DNA from: Squalus acanthias
Lineage: Eukaryota
Length of the DNA: 64,000 nucleotides
Direction of reading: 5' to 3'
Assembly (NCBI GenBank): GCA_030390025.1
Contig: CM059432.1
Coordinates: 24,802,001 to 24,866,000, forward strand
The notes under the pieces: model-generated
Databases searched by the model: none
What the model saw: only the letters and a program-made list of their open reading frames with translations
What the model was told of the DNA's origin: nothing
Program-made: the position numbers and the translations under genes
In this document: positions 7,007 through 57,306 of the stretch, one piece after another
Position numbering within the stretch: position 1 is the stretch's first letter
How the letters are laid out: the number at the start of each line of letters is the position of its first letter

Positions 7007-7899
7007 GGGGTAAAAATTCACTTGGTTGCGCCGCCCGTTAGCGCCTTAAGAGGGCGCTAATGGGGCGCAAAGCCGCTAACGCCCGGGCGCAGCGATGTTT
7101 GCGCCGCTCGAGAACTTAACTTGAGATTGTGCGGCGGCGCTAAAACTTACCGCTGCGACCACCTGCGCGCGCAGATTGTGACGTCATTCCATGGTGCAAC
7201 GCCCTTGGGGCGCCCCGTAGCGGAAATTGAGTGGCGCCCCCTGCCTTACCGCCTGGTGCTTCCAACGACCAGAAGACTGGAACGCTATCAATCGCTGTGG
7301 GGCTGGGGGGGGTGCTATTTAAAGGGGGCCTCTTCCTGTCTTTTATTGTTGGTGGCATTTTTGAACTACGCATTCTGAGAGAGAGAGGGAGAGACTTCTG
7401 GAGAGATTCAATGTTGTGTGAAGGAGTTTTGGGTACTGAGCAGCACTTTGCAGGTTCATTTTGATTTGCCATTCCTTGTATCGATTTAGCAGAGACCGTG
7501 GGAGCTGCACTCTGAGCTCTTTGCCTGGTACTCTCAATTGTTCTTTCTAGCACATTTGATGTGCAAGTCTCTCCAGGCCGAGATTCAAGGCAGCAATGAG
7601 CAGGATGTGGATGGAAAGCAAGATTAACCATCCCCTTTAAGAACTGGCCCGTGCCATTGTGTGTGTGTTCCATTGCTGACTGACATTACATGAGCTTCGC
7701 CAGCGCTCCGAGTTAGCGCCTCACTGCTCGGCCTTTGCGCCTTAAGAGAGGTGTGCAGCGCCTGCTTTAGCGCTCCACTCACCTCCCGGGGCGGTAAAAG
7801 TGAAGTTTCCCGTCAGTGCCGATAATTAGCGCCAGGCGCTAATATTTGCGTCCGGACGATATTTGCGCCCCAAATGGGGCGCGACCTAATTTCTACCCC
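7007..7899 (+). mobile_element. Harbinger MITE, subtype A (893 bp)
   Basis: TIR GGGGTAAAAATT / AATTTCTACCCC; TSD TAA; both ends closely match the 18433-22703 element. Confidence 0.93.
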
Positions 7900-8765: not shown

Positions 8766-9658
8766 GGGGGAAAAATTCAGTATCGCCCCATTTGGGGTGC
8801 AATTATCGGCCGGGCGCAAAGATTAGCGCCTGGCGCTAATTATCGCCATCGACTGCAAACTTCACTTTTATCGCCCCCGGAGGTGATTGCAGCGCTAAAT
8901 CAGGCGCTTCACACCTGTCTTAAGGCGCAAAGGCCGAGGAACGAGGCGCTACCTCAGAGCGCTGGCGAAGCTCATGTAATGTCAGTCAGCAATGGAACAC
9001 ACACACAATGGCATGGGCCAGTTCTTAAAGGGGATGGTTAATCTTGCTTTCCATCCACATCCTGCTCATTGCAGCCTTGAATCTCGGCCTGGAGAGACCT
9101 GCACATCAAATCTGCTGGAAAGAACAATGGAGAGTACCAGGCCAAGAGCTCAGAGTGCAGCCCCCACACTCTCTTCTAAATCGATACAAGGAATGGCAAA
9201 TCAAAATGAACCTGCAAAGTGCTGCTCAGTACCCAAAACTCCTTCACACAACGTTGAATCTCTCCAGAAGTCTCTACCTCTCTCTCTCAGAATGCGTAGT
9301 TCAAAAATGGCACCAACAATAAAAGGCAGGAAGCGGTCACCTTTAAATAGCGCTCCCCCTTTCCCTTCATGACTGCAGAACGCTCCCCTCAACCTGTCGT
9401 TGCTTGCGTCAGGCGGTAAGGCAGGGGGCGCCACTCAATATCCGCTCCGGGGCGATACCGGGGCGTTGCGCACTCGAGTGACGTCATGATCTGCCGGCGC
9501 AGGAGATCGTGGCGGTAGTGTTTAGCGCTGCCGCAAAATGTCTAGTTAATTTCACGAGCGGCGCAAACTTCGCCGCGCCCGGGCGCTAGCTGCTATGCGT
9601 CCCATTAGCGCCCTCTTAAGGCGCTAACGGGAGGCGCAACCAACTGAATTTTTCCCCC
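8766..9658 (-). mobile_element. Harbinger MITE (893 bp), A/B intermediate
   Basis: TIR GGGGGAAAAATT at both ends; flanks CTA/ATA (imperfect TSD); homologous to 7007-7899 in reverse. Confidence 0.92.
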
Positions 9659-11788: not shown

Positions 11789-12976
11789 GGGGGAAAAATA
11801 CAGTATCGTCCCGTTTGGGGCGCAATTATCGGCCGGGCGCAAAGTTTAGCGCCTGGCGCTAATTATCGCCTCCGATTGCAAACTTGGCTTTTATCGCCTC
11901 TGGAGGTGATTGGAGTGCTAAATCAGGCGCTTCACACCTGTCTTAAGGCGCAAAGGCCGAGGAGCGAGGCGCTACCTCAGAGCGCTGGCGAAGCTCATGT
12001 GATGTCAGTCAGCAATGGAACACAGACGCAATGGCGCCGGCCAGTTCTTAAAGGAGAGGGTTGATCTTGCGCTCCATCCACATCCTATTCATTGCAGCCT
12101 TGAATCTCGGCCTGGAGAGACCTGTACATGAAATCTGCTGGAAAGAACAATGGAGAGTACCAGGGAAAGAGCTCAGAGTGCAACCCCCACAGTCTCTTCT
12201 AAATCGATACAAGGAAGGGCAAATCAAAATGAACCTGCAAAGTACTGCTCAGTACCCAAAACACCTTCACACAGCGTTGAATCTCTTCAGAAGTCTCTCT
12301 CTCTCTCTCAGAATGCGTGGTGCAAAAATGTCACCAACAAAAAAAGGCAGGAAGCGGTTGCCTTTAAATAGCGCTCCCCCAGTCCCTTCCATAAGAACAT
12401 AAGAACATAAGAAATAGGAGCAGGAGTAGGCCAATCGGCCCCTCGAGCCTGCTCCGCCATTCAATAAGATCATGGCTGATCTGATCCTAACCGCCAATCT
12501 ACTATCTACTATCACAGAACCATCTCCTGCATCTAACAGAATTGCACACACGAAATAGGAGCAGAATCAGGCTACACGGTCCCTGGGCCCGCTCCACTAC
12601 CCACAGGGCCATGACCGATCCGAACCTAGACTCATGTCCAAATTCCTGCCCTCTCCCCGTAACCCTTAATGCCCTTTACCCTCTACTCCGGACTGCAAAA
12701 CGCTCCCCTCAACCTGTCGTTGCTAGCGGCAGGCGGTAAGACAGGGGGCGCCACTCAATATCCGGTCCGGGGCGCTACCGGGGCGTTGCGCACTCCACTG
12801 ACGTCACGATCTGCCGGCACAAGAGATCGTGGTGGTAGTGTTTGGCACCGCAAAATGTCTAGTTAATTTCGTGAGCGGCGCAAACATCGCCGCCCACGGG
12901 CACGAGTTGCTTGGCGCCCCATTAGCGCCCTCTTAAGGCGCTAACGGGAGGCGCAAACCAACTGAATTTTTCCCCC
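11789..12976 (-). mobile_element. Harbinger MITE, subtype B, interrupted by a CR1-tail insertion
   Basis: Same TIRs; flanks TAT/TCT; inserted in a CR1 (GATTCTAT)n tail; extra ~300 bp at 12391-12690. Confidence 0.9.
12391..12690 (-). mobile_element. CR1 3'-end insertion with two tandem 3'-UTR-like modules
   Basis: On -: KGIKGYGERAG-coding end, diverged UTR, spacer, canonical UTR, (TTCTTATG)n tail; absent from sister MITEs. Confidence 0.75.
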
Positions 12977-13167: not shown

Positions 13168-14945
13168 GGCCGTGATTTCGCCTTCCGAGGTGGGTCTCGT
13201 GCGGCCGGGGTCGGTGGCAGGGTGCAACCCCACTGCTGGCTCCATCCCGCTCTGTGAAAAGAATTTTACGCTGATTGGGCTTGTTAAGCCCGCCCAGCAC
13301 TTTTGCCGGCCAATTGAAGGAAGCGGGTCTGATGACGTCACTTGATGACGCGTCATCAGCCAGTTTCCATAAAGGGACCATGCGCAAAGTGTTTTTGACA
13401 GTTGTGCTGTCAGTGTTCTACAACATTGAGGTGCTGCAAACACTGACAAGCACTGCACAGAGATGCACGGCTGCATCCAGGCTCTCCCATGGCTCCCTCC
13501 ATATGCTTATGGTGGGAGTCACAGCACGCAGTGAGGTTCTCTTCCCTTCCCATGGGCGGAAGAGACCTCCCCAGGAGACCAATGCAGTCTGGTTGCACAT
13601 TGCACAGGAGGACAAAGCAGGGATGTCGTCAGGAGGACCAGGCTGCAGTGGCGCAAACCTTTCAATGATCTCAGTAGATCACGAAACGTTACTGCAAAGC
13701 CACACTCAACCTCATCCTGTTGTGCCACTCATCACATCCACATCACTCTGCCTTCCCTACCCTACTCCTGCACATCCTTACTCACACCAACTTACCTTCT
13801 ACCTCCACCCATCCCTCTCTATCTACATTATCACATCCCCATCTCATTAGCCATCCCTCACACTCACCCTCATCCTAGTCCAATCATACCAACTAACAAC
13901 ACCCAAGGATGGGCATTTGAGTGTTTTAGCCAATGTTCATGTGAAGTTTCTGTTAATGTGTGTCAAATATTTTACCTTTATTTTCAACACTTTGCGTTCT
14001 TGGACAGATCTGTGTGCACCTTTGGAAGTGGCTTAGTGTGTTGCAGTGAATAGTGAGACATAACGGAACCCCTGCAATCGTGGAGTGTGAAAGGAATGGC
14101 TTGGGAATTGTAGGGATGCTTTATGGTATTGGTGTGGGGTGGTGCCAACCTGGCGCATCATGTGGCAGCCAGAGTGTACAGCGTCAAGTGAAGTAAATCC
14201 AGCAATGGTGAGGCCATCCCTGGCGTCCAGGGCAGCAATGTGCTCAGGTGCTGATGCCGTCTGTCCTGTGCAGCATCAGTTGATTGCGGAGAAGGTTGGT
14301 GTTGTTGTTAGTGCTGCTGGTGTGCCTGGTGCTGCTGGTGTTGGGGCTGATCGTGGTGGGATTCTGAGGACCAAGGTGAGAGTTTTTCAAGGGCACCGAT
14401 GCTGATGGAATAGATGGCAGGTGAGGTTGAGATGACAGAAGCGATCTGTCAATGGTGAGAGAGGTTGTTCCAATGAGGTGACACTGGATAGGGTGTTAGT
14501 TCCAAACACTTGCAAGCTGCATAAAGCTCAATCTGTCTTCAAATGCAGTAAGTAACAGCTTCCAACCTTGGAAAGTGAACAGCTATGAAATGGGAGATTT
14601 TATAGGCCATTTGCAGCTGTCAAGTAAAGAAATCATCCCATGCTGACACAACACCCGACCTCCTTATCTGACGTGATCCGCGAGCAGCGGGGAAGCCATT
14701 GGCGAACTCTAAAAATCTAAAGGTAAACACAAAATACTAGTTAATTGCCTCTTTACAATCTCTCTAATGATGTAAATTGCTTCCCCCGCTGCTTGGTGTC
14801 AGGTCTGTTCAGCGTTGACAGACCCGACATCTGGGAGACTAGCGTGGAGGCGGGTTGACAGCGAGTTTCCTACCCACTATCAAAAATAAATTCCCAGCTG
14901 ACCCGCCTCCAAACGCCCCCACTGAACCCCTGAAAAATTCCCCCC
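13168..14945 (+). mobile_element. Non-autonomous Harbinger derivative, ~1.75-kb family, copy 2
   Basis: Collinear with 900-2647 over most of its length; frameshifted Myb remnant; ends GGCCGTGATTT and AAAATTCCCCCC. Confidence 0.8.
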
Positions 14946-16319: not shown

Positions 16320-17741
16320 AGGACATTATAGATACTCTTGTCATGATCTTCCAAAACTCTCTTGATTCAGGAATTGTCTCCTTGGATTGGAAAATTGCCA
16401 ATGTCACTTCATTATTTAAGAAGGGTAGGAGAGATAAACTAAGAAATTATAGGCCTATTCGTCTAATATCTTTTGTGGGGAAGTTACTAGAATCTGTTAT
16501 TAGGGACAGAGTGACTGAACACATGGACAAACATGAACTGATCAGAGATAAACATGCATTTATAAAGGGTAAGTCATGTCCAACGAACCAAGCTGATTTT
16601 TTTGAGGAGGTAACTAATGTGGTAGATAAGGGAGTGTCTGTAGATGTTATTTATATAGACTTCCGGAAGGCATTCAATAAGGTTCCACATAAGAGATTGT
16701 TAACAAAAATGAGAGTGCATGGAAGTGAAAGAAATCTATTGACATGGGTAGGGAATTGGTTAGGAGGTAGGAGACAAAATGTCGGCATAATGGGAATGTA
16801 CTCAAATTGGCAGGATGTGACTAGTGGTGTCTCCCAGGGATCTGCGCTCGGGCCTCTGCTTTTCACTATATGTGTAAATGACTTTGATGAATGAATAGAG
16901 AGCTGTATATGCAAGTTTGCTGATTGCATCATGTTAGGTGGCACAGTAAGTAGTGTAGATGGGAACTTTCAGTTGCAAAAGGACATTAATAGATTAAGTG
17001 AGTGAGCAAAACTAAGGTAGATGGAATTCAGGGAAATGTGAGGTCATCCACTTGGACCTAAGAAAGATAGATCAGAGTATTTTCTAAGTGGTGAGAAGCT
17101 AGGAACTGTGGTTGAGCAGAGAGATTTAGGGATCCAAGTACAGAAATCACTAAAAGATGGTAGGCGGGTACAAAAAATAAATAAAAGGCTAATGGAATGT
17201 TGGGCTTTATCTCAAGGGGGTTGTAAATTATGTTACAGTTATATAAAGCTCTGGTTAGACCCCATTTGGAGTACTGTGTTCAGTTCTGGACACTGCATCT
17301 CAGCAAGGATATATTGGCCTTGGAGGGGGTGCAGCACAAATTCATCAGAATGATGCTGGAACTAAAAGGGTTAAATTATGAGGACATGTTGAATAGACTA
17401 GACTTCTACTCTCTTGAGTATAGAAGATTAAGGGGTGATCTAATAGACGTGCTTAAGATGAATAAAGGAGTTGATAGGGTATGTAGAAAGAAATTATTTT
17501 TATGGTGAAGCATCTAGAACCTTCAAATTAGAGCTCGGCCATTCAGGGGTGCTGTCAGGAAGCAGTTCTTCACACAAAGGGTAGTGGAAATCTGGAACTC
17601 TCTCCCCCAAAAAGTTGTTGAGGCTAGGTCAATGGAACCAAGGCGGGTAGATGGAGTTAAGATACAGATCAGCTGAGATCTAATTGAATGGCGGAACAGG
17701 CTCGAGTGGCTGAATGGCCTACTCCTGTTCCTATGTTCCTA
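16320..17741 (+). mobile_element. Degenerate CR1 LINE ORF2 (reverse transcriptase) plus 3' UTR
   Basis: DWKIANVT.LFKKG, NYRPI.L.S..GKLLE, YIDFRKAFNKVPH, VTSGVSQGSALGPLLF; stops and frameshifts downstream. Confidence 0.92.
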
Positions 17742-18345: not shown

Positions 18346-18604
18346 CTCTCTTTGTCTTTTTCTTCCTTTTTCTTTAATAACTTTGAACAAAGCAAAGGGA
18401 AACTTATAAACTAAATTATAATATTATTCCTGGGGGTAAAAATTCAGTTGGTTGCGCCTCCCGTTAGCGCCTTAAGAGGGCGCTAATGGGGCGCAAAGCC
18501 GCTAGCGCCCGGGCGCAGCGATGTTTGCGCCGCTCGGGAACTTAGCTAGACATTGTGCGGCGGCGCTAAACTTTACCGCCGCGACCACCTGCGCGCGCAG
18601 ATTG

Positions 18605-18749
18605 TGACGTCATTCCATAGTGCAACGCCCTTGTGGCGCCCCGGAGCGGAAATTGAGTGGCGCCCCCTGCCTTACCGCCTGGCGCATCCAACGACCGGAA
18701 GACTGGAACGCTATCAATCGCTGTGGGGCTGGGGGGGGCGCTATTTAAA
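18605..18749 (+). promoter_or_regulatory. Putative transposase promoter (CRE TGACGTCA, GC-rich tract, TATA-like TATTTAAA)
   Basis: TGACGTCA 18605-18612 and TATTTAAA 18742-18749, about 200 nt upstream of the ATG; conserved in the MITE copies. Confidence 0.55.
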
Positions 18750-18943
18750 GGGGGCCTCTTCCTGTCTTTTTCTGTGGTTGACATTTTTGCACCACTCGTT
18801 CTGAGAGAGAGAGAGAGATGCAGAGAGAGAGAAAGAGAGACTTCTGCATTGAGTCAACGCTGTGTGAGGTAGTTTTGCCTACTGATCCTAACTTCGCTGG
18901 TACTTTGGTTGCTGTCCTTCATAACTTTGCTTGCAAAGAGACT

Positions 18944-20104
18944 ATGGGGGCTGCACTGATTGGGGGCGTCGTCCTGCTCCAGCTGAATCGGAGGACACAG
19001 AGACGCAGAGAGAGAGTGGCAATGATGGCCAGACGGAGGAGGGCCAACAGGCGTATGTACAGGAGAGCTTACCCTCCCAGGGTATATCGTGAACAGCTCT
19101 CCTACATTCATATGTCTGAGGAGCTGTGTTTGCGAAGGCTGCGATTCAGCAAGGAGGTGGTCACTGAGCTCTGCCACCTGCTGCAGCCAGATCTGCAGCC
19201 TCAACTGAGGTCCAGGACGTCTCTGTCGGTGGCAGTGAAGGTCACAGTGGCTCTCAACTTCTATGCTACTGGCTCATTTCAAGCTGCTGCTGGGGACCTC
19301 GCCAATATCTCCCAGTTCGCGGTGCATTGCTGCATCCGGCAGGTCACAAATGCCCTCTTTAAAAGGAGTCGAGAGTTCATCTCTTTCCCCATGACCCCAG
19401 ACAAGCAGCGTGACCGCGCTCTGGGCTTTGCGAGGATAGCGGGCTTCCCCATGGTGCAGGGCACCATTGACTGCACGCATGTGGCTTTGCGTGCTCCACG
19501 TGAGAATGCCGAGGAATTCCGGAACAGAAAGGGGTTCCATTCCTTGAATGTTCAGTTGGTCTGTGACCACAGACAGCTGATACTCGCTGTCAATGCACAC
19601 TATCCTGGTAGCTGCCACGATGCTTTCATCCTGCGCCAGACTACTGTGGCAGAACTTTTCGAGGCACCGCATCAGCCAGTTGGTTGGCTTCTCGGGGACA
19701 AGGGGTATCCATTGAGCACCTGGCTGATGACACCGCTCCGTACGCCCAACACCCCTGCTGAGCTGCGGTACAACGAGAGCCATCAAGCTACCAGGAACAT
19801 CATTGAGCGCACAATCGGCGTGCTGAAGCAACGGTTCCGCTGTCTCGACCATTCTGGAGGAGCCCTGCAGTACTCGCCTGAGCGAGTACCCAACTTCGTA
19901 GTTGTGTGCTGCATGTTGCATAACATGGCAATCGTCAGGACCCAGCCAATGCCACCAGGCCTTGGAGCACCACCAGAGGAGGAGGAGGAAGAGGAGGAAG
20001 AGGACGAGGAGGATGATCATCAGCAGCACCAAGGCGGGAGGGCGGCCCACAATGGTGAAACTGCAAGGGCCGTCCGTCAATGGCTGATAGCAAGCCGCTT
20101 CTAG
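18944..20104 (+). CDS. Harbinger (HARBI1-like, DDE_Tnp_4) transposase, ~386 aa, intact
   Basis: Motifs GTIDCTHV, FRNRKGFHSLNVQLVCD, PGSCHDAFIL, WLLGDKGYPL, YNESHQATRNIIERTIGVLKQRFRCL; N-terminal LRRLRFSKE...HTH-like region; acidic tail. The ORF is open from 18818, but the ATG at 18944 (MGAAL), downstream of a TATA-like box, is the likelier start. Confidence 0.95.
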   Translation: MGAALIGGVVLLQLNRRTQRRRERVAMMARRRRANRRMYRRAYPPRVYREQLSYIHMSEELCLRRLRFSKEVVTELCHLLQPDLQPQLRSRTSLSVAVKVTVALNFYATGSFQAAAGDLANISQFAVHCCIRQVTNALFKRSREFISFPMTPDKQRDRALGFARIAGFPMVQGTIDCTHVALRAPRENAEEFRNRKGFHSLNVQLVCDHRQLILAVNAHYPGSCHDAFILRQTTVAELFEAPHQPVGWLLGDKGYPLSTWLMTPLRTPNTPAELRYNESHQATRNIIERTIGVLKQRFRCLDHSGGALQYSPERVPNFVVVCCMLHNMAIVRTQPMPPGLGAPPEEEEEEEEEDEEDDHQQHQGGRAAHNGETARAVRQWLIASRF

Positions 20105-20233
20105 GGCCCCTGCTGTGGAAATGGCTTCTGCCATTGCTAACAACATCATTGAACCCAGCACGCAACCCCTAAGCCGGCCAAGGCACCAATGATTCCAAAC
20201 ACCAAACATGTATGTTTTGAATACAAAAACTTA

Positions 20234-20389
20234 TTTATTTTACAAACTCTGTGTGTGTAATTTCCTCATGACAAACTCATAGAAATAAACACAAAAAAAC
20301 AGTCATTAACATAACTGGTTCTCACAATCTGGAGATAATGTCCAAAACACTAGACAAAAGTTGGACCACGAACCTCGGCCTTTAATAAA
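20234..20389. terminator. Convergent polyadenylation signals between the two Harbinger genes
   Basis: AATAAA on + at 20284 and 20384; TTTATT (AATAAA on -) at 20234. Confidence 0.5.
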
Positions 20390-20416
20390 AAAATGACCAG
20401 CATTTTGTCACACCTC

Positions 20417-21393
20417 CTACTTTTTGCCCTTCGAGGGTGATCTCCTTCCCTTGCGCACTTCCCCCCTTCTAACCCTACTGCTCCTCCGTAATGGGACCTC
20501 AGTGGCTGCAGCAAGGCTGGTGGAAGGCTGCAGATTGTCAGACCCTGACACTGCAGATGCCTCTGAAGGACGGCCTCGACCAGTTATGGGCCTGGAGGGC
20601 CCGGCTGCAGACTGCACCAACTCTGCATGGGCGGCAGCAGTCTGTCCTACAGGCGGTGGCAAGTGCAGTGGAGAAGTGACAGTGTTGGCAGCAGGAATGC
20701 TGTCATCGTGAGAGAGGACAGCAACTCCCTGCTCGACCGACACACTGGCACGCCCACGGGGCAGCACTTCAGCATCCGGAGCAATCTGCTGGAGCACAGA
20801 TTGCTGGCCTGCTGCAGCGCGGTGAGAGCCCCGGGGACATTTGAACGAACCATCGAGGTTGGCAGCAGTCAGTGCTCGCGTGGCCTCAATCTGAGTCTGC
20901 ATTAGAGCAGTCAGAGATGGGATCACGGCAGTCAGTGACTGAATTGCAGCACTAAGCGTTAGTGTGGCATCCGCGTGTGCTACAGCGAAGTGCTCCACAC
21001 TCCTTGCCAGTGACTCAATGCATTCGGGCACCCTTCCCACTGCACCCATGAGCTCAGTGTGCATGCCCACCGCCTGGGTGTTCATTTCTGCGATCAGCCG
21101 CTCCTCCTCTGCGTCCATTGCAGTAGGAGTCGCTGGCATACTCTCCCTCTGGGGCGAAGGCCCCCGTTCTTCCCTACCCCCATGGCGTTGCTGCAGCCCG
21201 CTGGGTCCTGGAGCTTCACCCTCATCAGACCCTTCCCCCCTGCTCCCCTCCAAGGAAGGCGTGTTCCCAGTGTGGGCATGGGCTTCCTCGGGAGAGGGTG
21301 GCACTGATGCTCCGGCTTCCTCTTCCTCCTCGGCTGCAGCTTCACTCCCACTGGCAGCTTCAGGGCCCGTCTCCTCAGCTGGTGAATCACCAT
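20417..21393 (-). CDS. Harbinger Myb/SANT protein, exon 3 (977 nt, to stop)
   Basis: Acceptor CTTTCAG; phase-1 join is in frame with ORF 20417..21304. Exons total 1377 nt = 458 aa + stop. Basic C-terminus RRSSRVRRGEVRKGRR is NLS-like. Confidence 0.87.
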
Positions 21394-21552
21394 CTGAAAG
21401 CAGGGAGGTACAAGAGTGGCTTTAGCGTGAGGACAGGGTGACAGTAAGGGAGGAATAAGTGCAGCGAGTTAGCAAGTTGGATTGAAAGTGTCAAAGGCTG
21501 GTGTTGTGAGGGACAAGTGGAAGGACAGAGGACAAAAAGGTGATGACCTTAC

Positions 21553-21715
21553 CATTGCTGTCCAGAACGGGGTCGGCGTCTCCAGTGGTGACGGGACCGA
21601 TCACCCGGCTTGCCACAATCCTGTGGACGCACTCCTCAAGATCGCTGAGGGGTTGCAGCTGAGGCCGCCCTCCACCTGTCCGTTGCTGCTGTCTCTTATT
21701 ATGCGCCAGCTTGGC
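21553..21715 (-). CDS. Harbinger Myb/SANT protein, exon 2 (163 nt)
   Basis: Acceptor TTGCAG precedes AKLAHNKRQQQRTGGGRPQLQPLSDLEE (TGGG motif typical of these proteins). Donor GTAAGG at 21552, phase 1. Confidence 0.88.
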
Positions 21716-21749
21716 CTGCAAGTAAAAGGACAGCATCTGAGTAAATATA

Positions 21750-21965
21750 CAGCCATGGTCTTGCCTGATGTGCCTCCCATAGGTGAATAGCCCTTACTGT
21801 ATGCAGCCATGGTCTTGCCTGATGTGCCTCCCATAGGTGAATAGCCCTTATTGTATGCAGCCATGGTCTTGCCTGATGTGCCTCCCATAGGTGAATAGCC
21901 CTTACTGTATGCAGCCATGGTCTTGCCTGATGTGCCTCCCATAGGTGAATAGCCCTTACTGTATG
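21750..21965. repeat. 54-bp minisatellite, 4 tandem copies, in Myb intron 1
   Basis: Unit CAGCCATGGTCTTGCCTGATGTGCCTCCCATAGGTGAATAGCCCTTACTGTATG at 21750, 21804, 21858 and 21912. Confidence 0.95.
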
Positions 21966-22107
21966 CAAAGTGTGGAATGTGTGTGTGTGTTTCATGAAAG
22001 GGCCATAGGTGTTGGATGAGTGTTGTGCATTGGGGTTTTAAGACCCTCTGGCCATAGAGTGAGGTTGAGATGGAGGGATGGAGAGGTATTGAGAAAAAGC
22101 CACTCAC

Positions 22108-22344
22108 CCTGACGACCCGAGTGAGGTCGTTGAACTTTTTGCGGCATTGAACATGGGTCCTGGGCACCATGCTCCTGGAGGAGACGCTCTGAGCCGCCTC
22201 CCTCCACACTCTTCTGTACTCGCGTGGCAAAGGCCTCCTGCCACTCTCAGGGAAGAGTATACATCTTCTGCGCTCCACCGCGCCAACCAGAGCATCCAAG
22301 GCCCGCTCGGTGAAGCGCTGAGCTCGTTCTCTCACCCTCTCCAT
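22108..22344 (-). CDS. Harbinger Myb/SANT (trihelix) DNA-binding protein, exon 1 (79 codons)
   Basis: MERVRERAQRFTERALDALV...VWREAAQSVSSRSMVPRTHVQCRKKFNDL is a Myb/SANT-like domain. Followed by donor GTGAGT at 22107, phase 0. Confidence 0.92.
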
Positions 22345-22744
22345 CCTTGGCAGCAAAATGGATTCACAGGTCTCTCCAGGCCGAGATTCAAGGCTGCAAT
22401 GAGCAGGGTGTGGCTGGGGAGCAAGTTGGCCCCCCCCGCTTTAAGAACTGGCCGGCGCCAGTGTGTCTGTGTTCCCTCGCTAACTGGCAGCACCTGCGCT
22501 GCGCTCGCGCGCTGAGTTAGCGCCTCACTGCTCGGCCTTTGCGCCTTAAGACAGGTGTGCAGCGCCTGATTTAGCGCTCCACTCACCTCCCGGGGCGGTA
22601 AAAGTGAAGTTTCCAGTCAGTGGCGATAATTAGCGCCAGGCGCTAATTTTTGCGTCCAGACGATATTTGCGCCCCAAACGGGGCGCGACCTAATTTTTCC
22701 CCCCTGGTGTCCACAAAACACTTCAGTCCTTGTGGTGCCCATCG

Positions 22745-23150
22745 GTCATGCACATGTAGAAAAAATAACCAAAAAGACTAATGGAATGTTCGCCTTTAAC
22801 TCCAGGAGCCTGGAATACAAAAGTGAGGAAGTGAAGCTTCAGTTGTGCAGAACCTTGGTCATCCCCATCTGGAGTACTGTGTTCAATTTTGGGCACCAAA
22901 TCTCAGGAAAGATGTATTTGTCTTGGAGGGGTACAGTATAGGTTAACAGAATGATACCAGGGCTTAAAATGTTAAATTATGAAGACAAGTTGCATAAATT
23001 GGGTTTGTTATCCCTTGAGCTTAGACGATTGAGGAGTGATCTAATCAAGGTGTTTAAAATGATAAACTGATTCGATAGGGTAGATACAGAGAAACTGTTT
23101 CCTCTGGTGGGAGAAATCCAGAACAAGGGAGCATAATTTTAAAATTAAAT
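22745..23150 (+). mobile_element. Degenerate CR1 fragment
   Basis: [22 protein letters not shown] and RRLRSDLI.VFKM. Confidence 0.8.
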
Positions 23151-23487
23151 TTAAAATCATGTAACTGCCAAGATGGTAGAAGGTGAACTAGATTCATCTT
23201 GGTCTTTTCTCATCTAGCAGTTCCTATGTTCCACTGGAACCAACTAGATTTGTAGTGGAAACTTAAAATGCCTTCTCCAGATGTGACATATGCAAACAGA
23301 GTAAATTGACAGAAATCAAAACTATTTTGCAATATAGAATATGTGTATTTCAATACTTAATTATTAAAACACTATTATTAAAATGTGCCAAAACGGACTT
23401 CTTCCAAGAGTAAGGTAGCACCACTGTAACCAAATTCAATATAGCCTACAAATTTCTGTTAGTGCAATTTGCAGTTTCATTTTCTTT

Positions 23488-27067: not shown

Positions 27068-28040
27068 GGGGGAAAAATTCAGTTGGTTGCGCCTCCCGTT
27101 AGTGCCTTAAGAGGGCGCTAATGGGGCGCAAAGCAACTAGCGCCCGGGCGCGGCAATGTTTGCGCCGCTCGCGAAATTAACTAGACATTTTGCGGCGGCG
27201 CTAAACACTACCACCATGATCTCCTGCGCCAGCAGATCGTGACGTCAGTCGAGTGCGCAACGCCCCGGTAGCACCCCAGAGCGGATATTGAGTGGCGTCC
27301 CCTGCCTTACCGCCTGCCGCTAGCAACAACACGTTGAGGGGAGCGTTTTGCAGTCAGGAAGGGACTGGGGGAGCGCTATTTAAAGGCGACCGCTTCCTGC
27401 CTTTTTTTGTTGGTGACATTTTTGAACCACGCATTCCGAGAGAGAGAGAGAGAGAGAGAGACTTCTGGAGAGATTCAACGCTGTGTGAAGGAGTTTTGGG
27501 TACTGAGCAGCACTTTGCAGGTTCATTTTGATTTTCCCTTCCTTGTATCGATTTAGAAGAGACTGTGGGGGCCTCTCCATTGTTCTTTCCAGCAGATTTC
27601 ATGTACAGGTCTCTCCAGGCCGAGATTCAAGGCTGGAGAGACCTGTACATGAAATCTGCTGGAAAGAACAATGGAGATGACCAGGGAAAGAGTTCAGAGT
27701 GCAACCCCCACAGTCTCTTCTAAATCGATACAAGCAATGAGCAGGATGTGGATGGAAAGCAAGATCAACCCATCCCTTTAAGAGTTGGCTGGCGCCATTG
27801 TGTCTGTGTTCCATTGCTGACTGACATCACATGAGGTTCGCCAGCGCTCTGAGGTAGCGCCTCGCTCCTCGGCCTTTGCGCCTTAAGACAGATGTGTAGC
27901 GCCTGATTTAGCGCTCCAATCACCTCCAGGGGCGATAAAAGTCAAGTTTGAAGTTGGAGGCGATAATTAGCACCAGGCGCTAATCTTTGCGCCCGGCCGA
28001 TAATTGCGCCCCAAACGGGGTGATACTGAATTTTTCTCCC
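27068..28040 (+). mobile_element. Harbinger MITE, subtype B, with internal inverted duplication
   Basis: TIR GGGGGAAAAATT / AATTTTTCTCCC; TSD TTA. Confidence 0.92.
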
Positions 28041-44951: not shown

Positions 44952-45812
44952 TAAGAACATAGGAACAGGAGTAGGCCATTTAGCCCCTCAAGCCTGTTCC
45001 GCCATTCAATATGATCATGGTTGATCTGTGACCTAACTTCATATAACCCGCCTTTGCCCCATATCCCTTAATACCTTTGGTTGACAAATATCTATTAATC
45101 TCAGATTTTAAATTAACAATTATCCAGCATCAAATGCCATTTGCAGAAGAGATTTCAAAACTTCTACCACCCTTTGCATGTAGAAGTGTTTCCTAACTTC
45201 ACACCTGAAACGCCTTGCTCTAATTTTTAGACTATGCCCCCTAGTCCTAGATTACCCAACCAGCGAAAATAGTTTCTCTCTATCTACCCTATCAGTTCCC
45301 CTTAATATCTTGAAAACTTTGATAAAATCATCCTTTAACCTTCTAAATTCCAGGGAATACAACCCTAATTTGTGCAATCGCTCCTCGTAATTTACCTTGG
45401 AGTCCAGGTATTATTCTGGTAAACCTACGCTGCACTCCCTCCAAGGCCAATATATCCTTCCTAAGGTGTGGTGCCCAGAACTGCTCACAGTACTCCAGTT
45501 GTGGTCTAACCAGGGTTTTGTATAGCTGCAGCATAGCTTCTACCCACTTATATTCTAGTCCTCCAGATATAAAGGCTCGCATTCCATTAGCCTTTTTATC
45601 ATTTTCTGTACCTGTTCACGACATTTTAATAATCTATGTACATGGACCCCCAAGTCTCCTTGGACCTCCACTGTTTTTAGCTTTTCACCATTTGGAAAGT
45701 ACCCTGTTCTATCCTTTTTCAGTCCAAAGTGGATGACCTCACATTTTCCTACATTGAAATCCATTTGGCACAGTTTTGCCCATTCGCTTAATCTATTAAT
45801 ATCTCTTTGTAA
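44952..45812 (-). mobile_element. CR1 3' fragment
   Basis: LQRDINRLSEWA, FNVGKCEVIHFG, LVRPQLEYCEQFW. Confidence 0.9.
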
Positions 45813-49654: not shown

Positions 49655-50295
49655 CATTTTAGCACGCAGCTGACGAAGGTTGGAGATGCCACCATCTGTG
49701 AGGTGTCGAATAAAGATTGCCCGTCACATTTCTTGAAAATCTCACGCAGTAACACAGCAAACAGTTTGCTGAACAGGGTTGGGGCAAGAACACAACCTTG
49801 TTTGACGCCGCCAGTGATTACAAATGGTGATGACACGTGACCTTGATCTATTACACAGGGCATCATTTCAACATATAATTACCAGACAATGTTCACAAAT
49901 CTACCAGTGCATCTGAACTGTAGGGGAGTCTCCCACAGTGCATCACGATTCACAGAATCAAATGAGCTTGCCAAGTCAACAAAAAGCACATGAAGGTCCG
50001 TTGCTCTTCTCTACACTCTTCCTGGATATGGTAGGCTGAGAAAATCATGTTGGATATTCCACAACCAGCCTGAAAGCTGCATTGGCTTGCGTGGAGAATT
50101 TTTTTCCACTGGTTGTTCATTCAGTCGGCAGAGCATAATGCGGGCAAAAATTTAACCCGCTACCAATGAAGCAAAATCGTGCGGTGACTATCGGAGTTTG
50201 AGCGGTCACTTTTGCACTTGTAGAGCTGCACGATGTCGACAGCTTTGATATCTTGCGGCACCGTTGTATGTTCCCAGGTCTTGGCTGATTTGTTA
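49655..50295 (-). mobile_element. Degenerate RTE-clade LINE RT fragment
   Basis: SSPFVITGGVKQGCVLAPTLFS; VPQDIKAVDIVQLYKCKSDRS.SDSHR.ILL. Confidence 0.8.
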
Positions 50296-56413: not shown

Positions 56414-57306
56414 GGGGTAGAAATTAGGTCGCGCCCCATTTGGGGCGTAAATATCGTCCGGACGCAAATATTAGCGCCTGGCGCTAATTATCGGCACTGA
56501 CAGGAAACTTCACTTTTACCGCCCCGGGAGGTGAGTGGAGCGCTAAAGCAGGCACTGCACACCTCTCTTAAGGCGCAAAGGCCGAGCAGTGAGGCGCTAA
56601 CTCGGAGCGCTGGCGAAGCTCATGTAATGTCAGTCAGCAATGGAACACACACACAATGGCACGGGCCAGTTCTTAAAGGGGATGGTTAATCTTGTTTTCC
56701 ATCCACATCCTGTTCATTGCTGCCTTGAATCTCGGCCTGGAGAGACTTGCACATCAAATGTGCTGGAAAGAACAATGGAAAGTACCAGGCAAAGAGCTCA
56801 GAGTGCAGCTCCCACATTCTCTGCTAAATCGATACAAGGAATGGCAAATCAAAATGAACCTGCAAAGTGCTGCTCAGTACCCAAAACTCCTTCACACAAC
56901 GTTGAATCTCTCCAGAAGTCTCTCCCTCTCTCTCTCAGAATGCGTAGTTCAAAAATGCCACCAACAATAAAAGACAGGAAGAGGCCCCCTTTAAATAGCG
57001 CCCCCCCCAGCCCCACAGCGATTGATAGCGTTCCAGTCTTCTGGTCGTTGGAAGCGCCAGGCGGTAAGGCAGGGGGCGCCACTCAATTTCTGCTACGGGG
57101 CGCCACAAGGGCGTTGCACCATGGAATGACGTCACAATCTGCGCGCGCAGGTGGTCGCAGCGGTAAGTTTTAGCGCCGCCGCACAATCTCAAGTTAAGTT
57201 CTCGAGCGGTGCAAACATCGCTGCGCCCGGGCGTTAGCGGCTTTGCGCCCCATTAGCGCCCTCTTAAGGCGCTAACGGGAGGCGCAACCAAGTGAATTTT
57301 TACCCC
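56414..57306 (-). mobile_element. Harbinger MITE, subtype A (893 bp)
   Basis: TSD TTA; near-identical reverse complement of 7007-7899 (the incidental 177-aa ORFs differ at only a few residues). Confidence 0.94.

Follow-up and report, generated by a model that had tools for sequence, protein, structure and literature searches.

The 64,000 bp of Squalus acanthias DNA that were analyzed (the window) contain a full-length, two-gene Harbinger transposon of the PHIS superfamily in which both reading frames are open. This copy probably belongs to a very large family, was inserted long ago, has accumulated neutral changes since then, and is likely impaired. The first-pass annotation had proposed that it may be transposition-competent as it stands. 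That proposal was not supported, given at least 20 differences from the family majority, replacement and silent changes in a neutral proportion, and altered conserved residues in both proteins.

The two terminal inverted repeats reported by the first-pass annotation were recovered. They begin with GGG and pair at 11 of 12 bases (13 of 16 over a longer span), and read depth rises and then falls in the bins containing the two ends. With at most one mismatch allowed, the window contains 15 occurrences of the end motif versus 1.17 expected (100 shuffles); 12 of these occurrences combine into six elements, namely the full-length copy and five MITEs, which together occupy 9,111 bp (14%) of the window. 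The target of the full-length copy is C/CTG/G (slashes enclose the duplicated 3 bp). The CTG duplication proposed earlier was confirmed, as the identical triplet flanks both ends and occurs once at each of two related empty sites (joints 18407>22703 and 18409>22704). These two end-to-end skips of the element bear clearly diverged flank letters and were therefore read as paralogous empty sites, not polymorphism. Among the 15 of 87 joints and 12 of 36 between-letter rows listed, a weak test, no empty allele at this locus was seen. CpG dinucleotides had been described as abundant. This is correct for the two terminal ∼300 bp (observed/expected ratios of 1.11 and 1.03) and incorrect for the element overall, whose ratio of 0.57 is ordinary for the window (0.21 to 0.72 among 2-kb bins). 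GCGCC/GGCGC words number 13 in 301 bp at the left end, versus 21 in 33 kb of background, and nine in 301 bp at the right end. They are likely to be binding sites for the Myb protein.

Table 1. Coordinates of the element, its genes and the related MITEs (o/e, observed/expected).
Feature	Position	Strand	Remarks
Whole element	18433..22703		Full-length; two convergent genes, both frames open
Left target site duplication, CTG	18430..18432	+	Also single at related empty sites
Left terminal inverted repeat, 12 bp	18433..18444	+	Sequence match; read-depth step
Left subterminal region, CpG-rich, TATA-like word at 18742	18445..18760		CpG o/e 1.11
Transposase ORF, 386 aa	18944..20104	+	D176/D252/E288; copy-specific S142, P316, W380
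Spacer between convergent stop codons	20105..20416		AATAAA on + (20284, 20384) and on - (20234-20239)
Myb exon 3	20417..21393	-	977 nt including stop codon
Myb intron 2, predicted	21394..21552	-	159 nt, GT-AG
Myb exon 2	21553..21715	-	163 nt
Myb intron 1, predicted	21716..22107	-	392 nt, GT-AG
Myb exon 1	22108..22344	-	237 nt; Myb/SANT-like domain (PF13873); copy-specific A50
Right subterminal region, CpG-rich, GCGCC/GGCGC words	22403..22691		CpG o/e 1.03
Right terminal inverted repeat, 12 bp	22692..22703	-	Sequence match; read-depth step
Right target site duplication, CTG	22704..22706	+	
MITE, 893 bp	7007..7899	+	TAA duplication; 87-88% to element's ends; 98% to 56414-57306
MITE, 893 bp	8766..9658	-	Imperfect duplication; 77-83% to element's ends
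MITE, 1188 bp	11789..12976	-	Imperfect duplication; 71-82% to element's ends
MITE, 973 bp	27068..28040	+	TTA duplication; 78-83% to element's ends
MITE, 893 bp	56414..57306	-	TAA duplication in element orientation; 86-87% to element's ends

The transposase is stop-free with an intact D/D/E triad, as first annotated, and contains the PF13359 domain (DDE_Tnp_4/IS5-like; E 1.9e-40). A further in-frame ATG is located 5′ of 18944 within a GA repeat; the 21 aligned homologues begin at the methionine of 18944. The predicted model is well folded (pLDDT 84). Solved structures gave no match by sequence and none by fold at E 0.001. Weak fold matches of the model are to DDE transposases and integrases. 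On sequence grounds, the 3′ ends of the two genes are predicted to overlap.

The Myb/SANT gene was assembled from three exons (237, 163 and 977 nt) that, when joined as predicted, encode 458 aa (PF13873, E 3.4e-9). This agrees with the earlier model of three in-frame GT-AG exons, and homologues back the first junction: it is crossed by 55 of 63 aligned homologues, versus two for the unspliced control. Three alternative splice registers were ruled out by early stops. When used alone as a query, exon 3 returned no homologues among 8,000 scored candidates, and exon 1 returned one among 227. Intron 1 carries 4.1 copies of a 54-bp unit (21746-21967). In run X8, which is labeled “RNA?”, a contig passes unspliced through intron 2 at a depth equal to that of the coding pieces, and the run was therefore treated as DNA. 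Run X21 (polyA raw reads under a different organism label) yielded no reads on the element and is uninformative on expression. Spliced RNA was thus not seen in these two runs, which make a weak test.

If the element behaves like zebrafish Harbinger3_DR and rice Ping/Pong, promoters in its CpG-rich termini would drive transcription of the two convergent genes. Once spliced, the Myb gene would supply a Myb/SANT protein that binds the element ends and delivers the DDE transposase to the nucleus and to the inverted repeats. Excision of the element by the transposase would be followed by reinsertion at a 3-bp target (here C/CTG/G), which would be duplicated, and the same two proteins would have moved the MITEs.

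All 74 best protein matches come from sharks or rays, with 70% as the highest identity, and the exact protein is absent from the protein collection searched. No description of the family was found in the literature, nor any protein above 70% identity, in a search whose scope lay outside Repbase and Dfam. The element is a new elasmobranch member of a known Harbinger kind. Over the transposase, contig depths sum to 1.8e5 to 1.1e6, versus 8 to 26 in the unique left flank. Depth itself is not copy number; the lower bound derived from it is ∼400 to 2,300 copies at ≥90% identity, and this rough estimate suggests 10^3 or more related copies. Aligned contigs range from 90% to 100% identity to the element, and thus several subfamilies exist. 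Between 52% and 80% of the element's words are present in runs under six coded organism labels, and none in two other label C runs. Note that only label A runs were aligned to the element, and no inference of horizontal transfer or between-species sharing was drawn. Run X2, labeled as a different sample from X1, contains the filled right junction and several of the copy-specific bases, which favors the reading as an old copy; however, the window itself may derive from one of these two samples.

Differences between this copy and its relatives were taken from 40 of 175 rows, 38 of which fall inside the element. At 20 of these 38 positions, another base accounts for ≥79% of the depth in each of the three informative runs. 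Fifteen of the 20 are coding, and 12 of the 15 change a residue, compared with 75% expected under neutrality; on these small numbers, the replacement share is the neutral one. CpG decay explains four of the 20. Transposase position 142 is S in this copy (homologues: R in 69 of 117, S in three), position 316 is P (S in 75 of 101, P in two) and position 380 is W (R commonest, 12 of 40); at all three, the family-majority residue is the commonest one among homologues. Position 50, in the Myb core, is A in this copy and V, I or L in 63 of 63 homologues. Because its own changes fall at conserved positions of both proteins, the copy is likely to be old and resting. With a mutation rate of 7e-10 from a different shark species (PMC10587355), a divergence of 0.14% to 0.7% would correspond to ∼2 to 10 million generations (range 1 to 50 million).

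The effect of these replacements may be limited. In the Pro316 model a helix begins at 315, three residues later than in a Ser-bearing homologue, and proline is thus predicted to shorten this helix, falling within its first turn. Proline is tolerated in the first turn of a helix, and Val-to-Ala is a mild change; function may therefore survive. The evidence against impairment also includes the lack of any stop or frameshift and the intact triad, ends and splice dinucleotides.

We consider it rather unlikely that the family is still mobile in this shark lineage, through near-consensus, expressed masters among a thousand or more copies, perhaps including this one. Somewhat less probable still is that this very copy is competent today, with both genes expressed and its replacements tolerated. 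The open frames, D/D/E residues, GT-AG introns, paired ends, CpG-rich termini and confident transposase fold would all fit such a copy, as against the neutral pattern of its own changes, conserved positions in both proteins included. Furthermore, two frames would remain open by chance after 0.5% divergence with a probability of ∼0.67 (substitutions only). At six of the 20 positions the window's base is at single-locus depth or missing in X2, and there is therefore no sign of daughter copies. Three window bases are missing from X2, and either allelic variation or errors in the assembly could account for them.

The remaining 14 positions have non-majority depths of 82 to 50,869 in X2, which exceed single-copy depth. 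Together with the spread of contig identities and the several subfamilies, this would fit a copy that founded a small, recent sub-lineage, with the differences being subfamily marks instead of decay. We regard this as improbable, since the residual depth includes third bases and repeated mutation such as CpG decay, the six single-locus or missing positions are left over, and an active lineage should have fewer replacements than neutral, whereas 12 of 15 equals the neutral value (small numbers). Retention by the host as a domesticated HARBI1/NAIF1-type gene pair can be dismissed almost entirely: the protein matches carry the name “putative nuclease HARBI1”, and for several of them orthology among sharks and rays seems likely, but the ends and target duplication are intact, related sites are empty, copy number is very high, and there is no purifying signal.

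The preferred reading, an old and drifted copy, is set beside published Harbingers here by description. Han et al. 2015 list zebrafish Harbinger3_DR under the name NuwaI-2_DRer (PMC4482050); its reconstruction is credited to Sinzelle et al. 2008 in PMC2836001 and PMC3016246. Harbinger3_DR resembles the shark element in length (∼4.2 kb), 12-bp ends, a CWG-type duplication, and the pairing of a DDE_Tnp_4 transposase with a Myb_DNA-bind_5 protein (PMC4482050). It differs in protein lengths (343 and 221 aa versus 386 and 458 aa), and of the published 15-bp target the shark site shares the central triplet and five of 12 flanking bases. The shark copy has the CWG duplication and GGG-starting ends of the NuwaI group, whereas, unlike Harbinger3_DR, its same-ended MITEs occupy TAA/TTA duplications (three of five; two are imperfect). 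The NuwaII group (target C/TNA/G; painted turtle and amphioxus; Han et al. 2015, PMC4482050) shares the long Myb partner and, across the six window elements, a C before the target (6/6) and a G after it (3/6). The triplet is TNA in three of the six, but CTG in the full-length copy, and the shark Myb protein scores higher with Myb_DNA-bind_5 than with the Myb_DNA-bind_4 of turtle NuwaII.

A naturally intact vertebrate Harbinger would not be a first, as such copies have been published. Harbinger-Snek of sea kraits has 269 intact copies in one species, and another species has one intact copy with RNA reads across both genes (Galbraith et al. 2021, PMC8437027). As in the shark, this family has expanded massively in a vertebrate and comprises complete copies with both genes as well as short non-autonomous derivatives; its host is a reptile and its horizontal origin is demonstrated, whereas the proteins nearest to the shark element are from other sharks and rays. 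LatiHarb1 of the coelacanth and the teleost and newt Harbingers are also high-copy with a Myb partner, in other hosts, and recent bursts and transcription are reported for them (PMC3787270, PMC9179366, PMC5741667). PMC9179366 reports no Harbingers in elephant shark and leaves other cartilaginous fishes to be analyzed, a gap that the shark family and its MITEs fill.

Two frames can stay open for millions of generations at shark mutation rates, and “intact” should therefore not be equated with “active”. Near-consensus copies, should they turn out to be mobile, would be candidates for a gene-transfer tool. If the family is still mobile, it would provide a natural vertebrate Harbinger system with a ready MITE donor, making reconstruction unnecessary, and its relaxed C/NNN/G-type target would bridge the NuwaI and NuwaII groups. 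It would also contribute much of the new variation in a lineage whose mutation rate is among the lowest of vertebrates.

On sequence grounds, the element is an autonomous-type Harbinger. Its inverted repeats are identical at 11 of 12 bases (13 of 16 over a longer span) and CTG flanks it on both outer sides, as the first-pass annotation described. The stop-free transposase frame encodes 386 aa with D176, D252 and E288 (PF13359, E = 1.9e-40). The three exons of the minus-strand Myb/SANT gene (237, 163 and 977 nt; GT-AG introns) join in frame to 458 aa, with PF13873 within exon 1; both genes stand as that annotation drew them. The abundance of CpGs that it claimed holds at the element ends (observed/expected 1.11 and 1.03), but not for the whole element, where a ratio of 0.57 falls inside the window range of 0.21 to 0.72. 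GCGCC/GGCGC words occur 13 times in the left terminal 301 bp and 9 times in the right, versus 3 times in the internal 3.4 kb and 21 times across 33 kb of background sequence, and the terminal ones are likely, though putative, binding sites for the Myb protein. An old LINE-like relic forms the right flank; the left flank is weakly repeated too.

Positions in the window of the element, its MITEs and other repeated features
Feature	Strand	Coordinates
Full-length element		18433-22703
Inverted repeats		18433-18444; 22692-22703
Transposase frame	+	18944-20104
54-bp tandem repeat, Myb intron 1		21746-21967
MITE		7007-7899
MITE		8766-9658
MITE		11789-12976
MITE		27068-28040
MITE		56414-57306
LINE-like relic (right flank)		22745-23200
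Stretches 70-72% like this relic		45367-45622; 17168-17395
Decayed Myb-gene relic	-	140-661
Decayed Myb-gene relic	+	1243-1416
Decayed Myb-gene relic	+	13473-13607
Stretches 85% alike (region of decayed Myb relics)		900-2200; 13168-14489
End-like GGG...AATT words		37194; 50142-50158; 51246; 53336

A protein search with the transposase gave 425 matches, of which the best 120 were considered. No identical protein was present in the collection searched; the top 74 matches (best identity 70%) are all shark or ray models, named "putative nuclease HARBI1" or of unnamed function, which makes an elasmobranch the likely host. All three catalytic residues are kept in 52 of the best 120 of 425 matches, and 27 of the 52 also span residues 60-327; annotated fish genomes thus commonly carry transposases of this type that look intact. 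Some shark and ray "HARBI1" models are apparently orthologous between species (protein matches P0004/P0005, P0010/P0012, P0023/P0024/P0062 and P0042/P0045). Because most of these lack the catalytic glutamate, they are possibly domesticated transposase genes.

The predicted Myb splicing was checked with 67 Myb-domain proteins, 63 of them alignable; note that all are relatives' gene models and none is a transcript of this copy. Junction 1 of the predicted spliced product is crossed by 55 of the 63 homologues, versus 2 for exon 1 extended into the intron. Junction 2 is crossed by 33 of 63, a weaker support due to the low-complexity region and alignment without composition correction. None of the runs that contain the element is recorded as RNA. 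Sequencing run X8, whose RNA label is doubtful, behaves like DNA and was rejected as RNA, and X21 (polyA reads under another organism label) yielded 0 reads and so does not bear on expression. Intron 1 contains 4.1 copies, 98% alike, of a 54-bp unit; X8 depth drops there, so the expansion may be limited to few copies. The decayed Myb-gene relics in the table derive from other Harbinger families.

The end motif, allowing at most one mismatch, occurs 15 times in the window versus 1.17 expected (100 shuffles), and 12 of the 15 form pairs, giving six elements that occupy 14% of the window: the full-length copy and five MITEs of 893-1188 bp, 71-88% like the element's ends. The MITEs keep the ends, in four of the five as far as roughly the start codon of one gene or both, and lack the coding middle. 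Two are 98% identical to each other, consistent with both having been mobilised in trans around the same time. C precedes the target triplet in all six elements and G succeeds it in three; the triplet is TAA/TTA in three MITEs, imperfect in two, and CTG in the full-length copy. Further end-like words (table) may belong to other Harbinger-type families.

Read depth was compared in four of 23 listed runs; among runs containing the element's words, these covered organism label A. In the bins that contain the two ends, depth climbs by a factor of 10^4 to 10^5, confirming the element boundaries. With up to 31-fold over-counting by short contigs discounted, the depth over the transposase implies at least some 400-2,300 copies at ≥90% identity; since contig depth is no true copy number, the figure is good to an order of magnitude. 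Matched contigs range from 90 to 100% identity, a spread that suggests several subfamilies. Two contig joints jump the entire element and leave a single CTG; their flank letters are clearly unlike the window's, so these are paralogous empty sites, which confirm the CTG duplication and not polymorphism. No orthologous empty allele was found among 15 of 87 joints examined. One X2 contig at single-copy depth runs from the element's last 26 bases into the right flank, below the 31-base bridge standard, and suggests that the X2 sample carries the insertion. In X1, two contigs link right end to left end (22703>18433) with 1 or 11 letters between; these are probably adjacent elements elsewhere in the genome, excised circles being less likely. 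The element's sampled words are present at 52-80% in runs under six organism labels, one run having only 9 million letters; two other label C runs contain none.

The first-pass annotation proposed that this copy may be transposition-competent as it stands, which we now consider unlikely; it is probably old and impaired. Of 175 places differing from the runs, 40 were sampled and, after dropping two in the right flank, 38 were examined. At 20 of the 38, another base is the majority in X1, X2 and X8 (≥79% of depth, a threshold set by us). Fifteen of the 20 are coding, with 12 replacements and 3 silent changes, against a neutral expectation of 75% replacements (binomial p 1.0). In X2, the window base is missing or at single-locus depth for six places; at the remaining 14 the residual depth is higher, and these could be recurrent changes or ones shared within a small sub-lineage. 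Weighing against an old, impaired copy, three of the window bases do not occur in X2 and could be alleles or errors, either X1 or X2 is possibly the window's own sample, and 135 differing places lie outside those sampled. High-depth X8 pieces differ from this copy at 9 of 1,280 bases (0.7%). At the epaulette shark mutation rate of 7e-10 per base per generation (CI 1.4-14.1e-10; PMC10587355), 6-30 changes correspond to about 2-10 million generations (range 1-50 million).

By computation, the chance that both frames are still free of nonsense substitutions at 0.5% divergence is about two in three. Competence is favored by the lack of overt damage, and the copy-specific changes may be tolerated. 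The family residues R142, S316 and R380 of the transposase are the commonest in homologues (69/117, 75/101 and 12/40), while this copy has S (3/117), P (2/101) and W (outside the eight commonest). At position 50 of the Myb domain all 63 homologues carry V, I or L and the family carries V, against A here. The C-terminal core helix starts at 315 in the modelled transposase (pLDDT 84) and at the equivalent of 312 in a modelled Ser-bearing homologue; by this comparison Pro316 would shorten the helix by one turn, with or without consequence for function.

The reconstructed zebrafish element, Harbinger3_DR, needed both of its proteins to move in human cells; its Myb protein binds the element ends and the transposase and is required for transposase nuclear entry, and in the rice system a Myb-domain mutation abolished excision (PMC2836001). 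By analogy, both proteins would be needed here, the Myb protein binding the ends, putatively at the terminal GCGCC/GGCGC words, as well as the transposase, which it would take into the nucleus. MITEs, having retained the ends without the coding middle, would be moved in trans.

Han et al. 2015 (PMC4482050) place Harbinger3_DR in NuwaI (CWG target, 12-bp ends, Myb_DNA-bind_5) and, for three groups, count 88, 11 and 22 families in which both frames are intact. By its own features this copy matches NuwaI, while the target sites of the MITEs are closer to the C|TNA|G pattern of NuwaII, so that assignment to either group is tentative; the six-element set is a mixture of both rules. Naturally intact vertebrate Harbingers are already on record: sea krait genomes are reported to hold 269 intact copies in one species and, in another, one intact copy with RNA over both genes (PMC8437027). 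Harbinger expansion and expression are also reported for newt (PMC5741667), teleosts (PMC9179366) and coelacanth (PMC3787270). The teleost study detected no Harbingers in elephant shark and left other cartilaginous fishes to be analysed (PMC9179366). We found no paper on an elasmobranch Harbinger family in the mainly open-access literature, Repbase and Dfam being outside the comparison. This is a real full-length Harbinger of a very abundant and apparently undescribed elasmobranch family.
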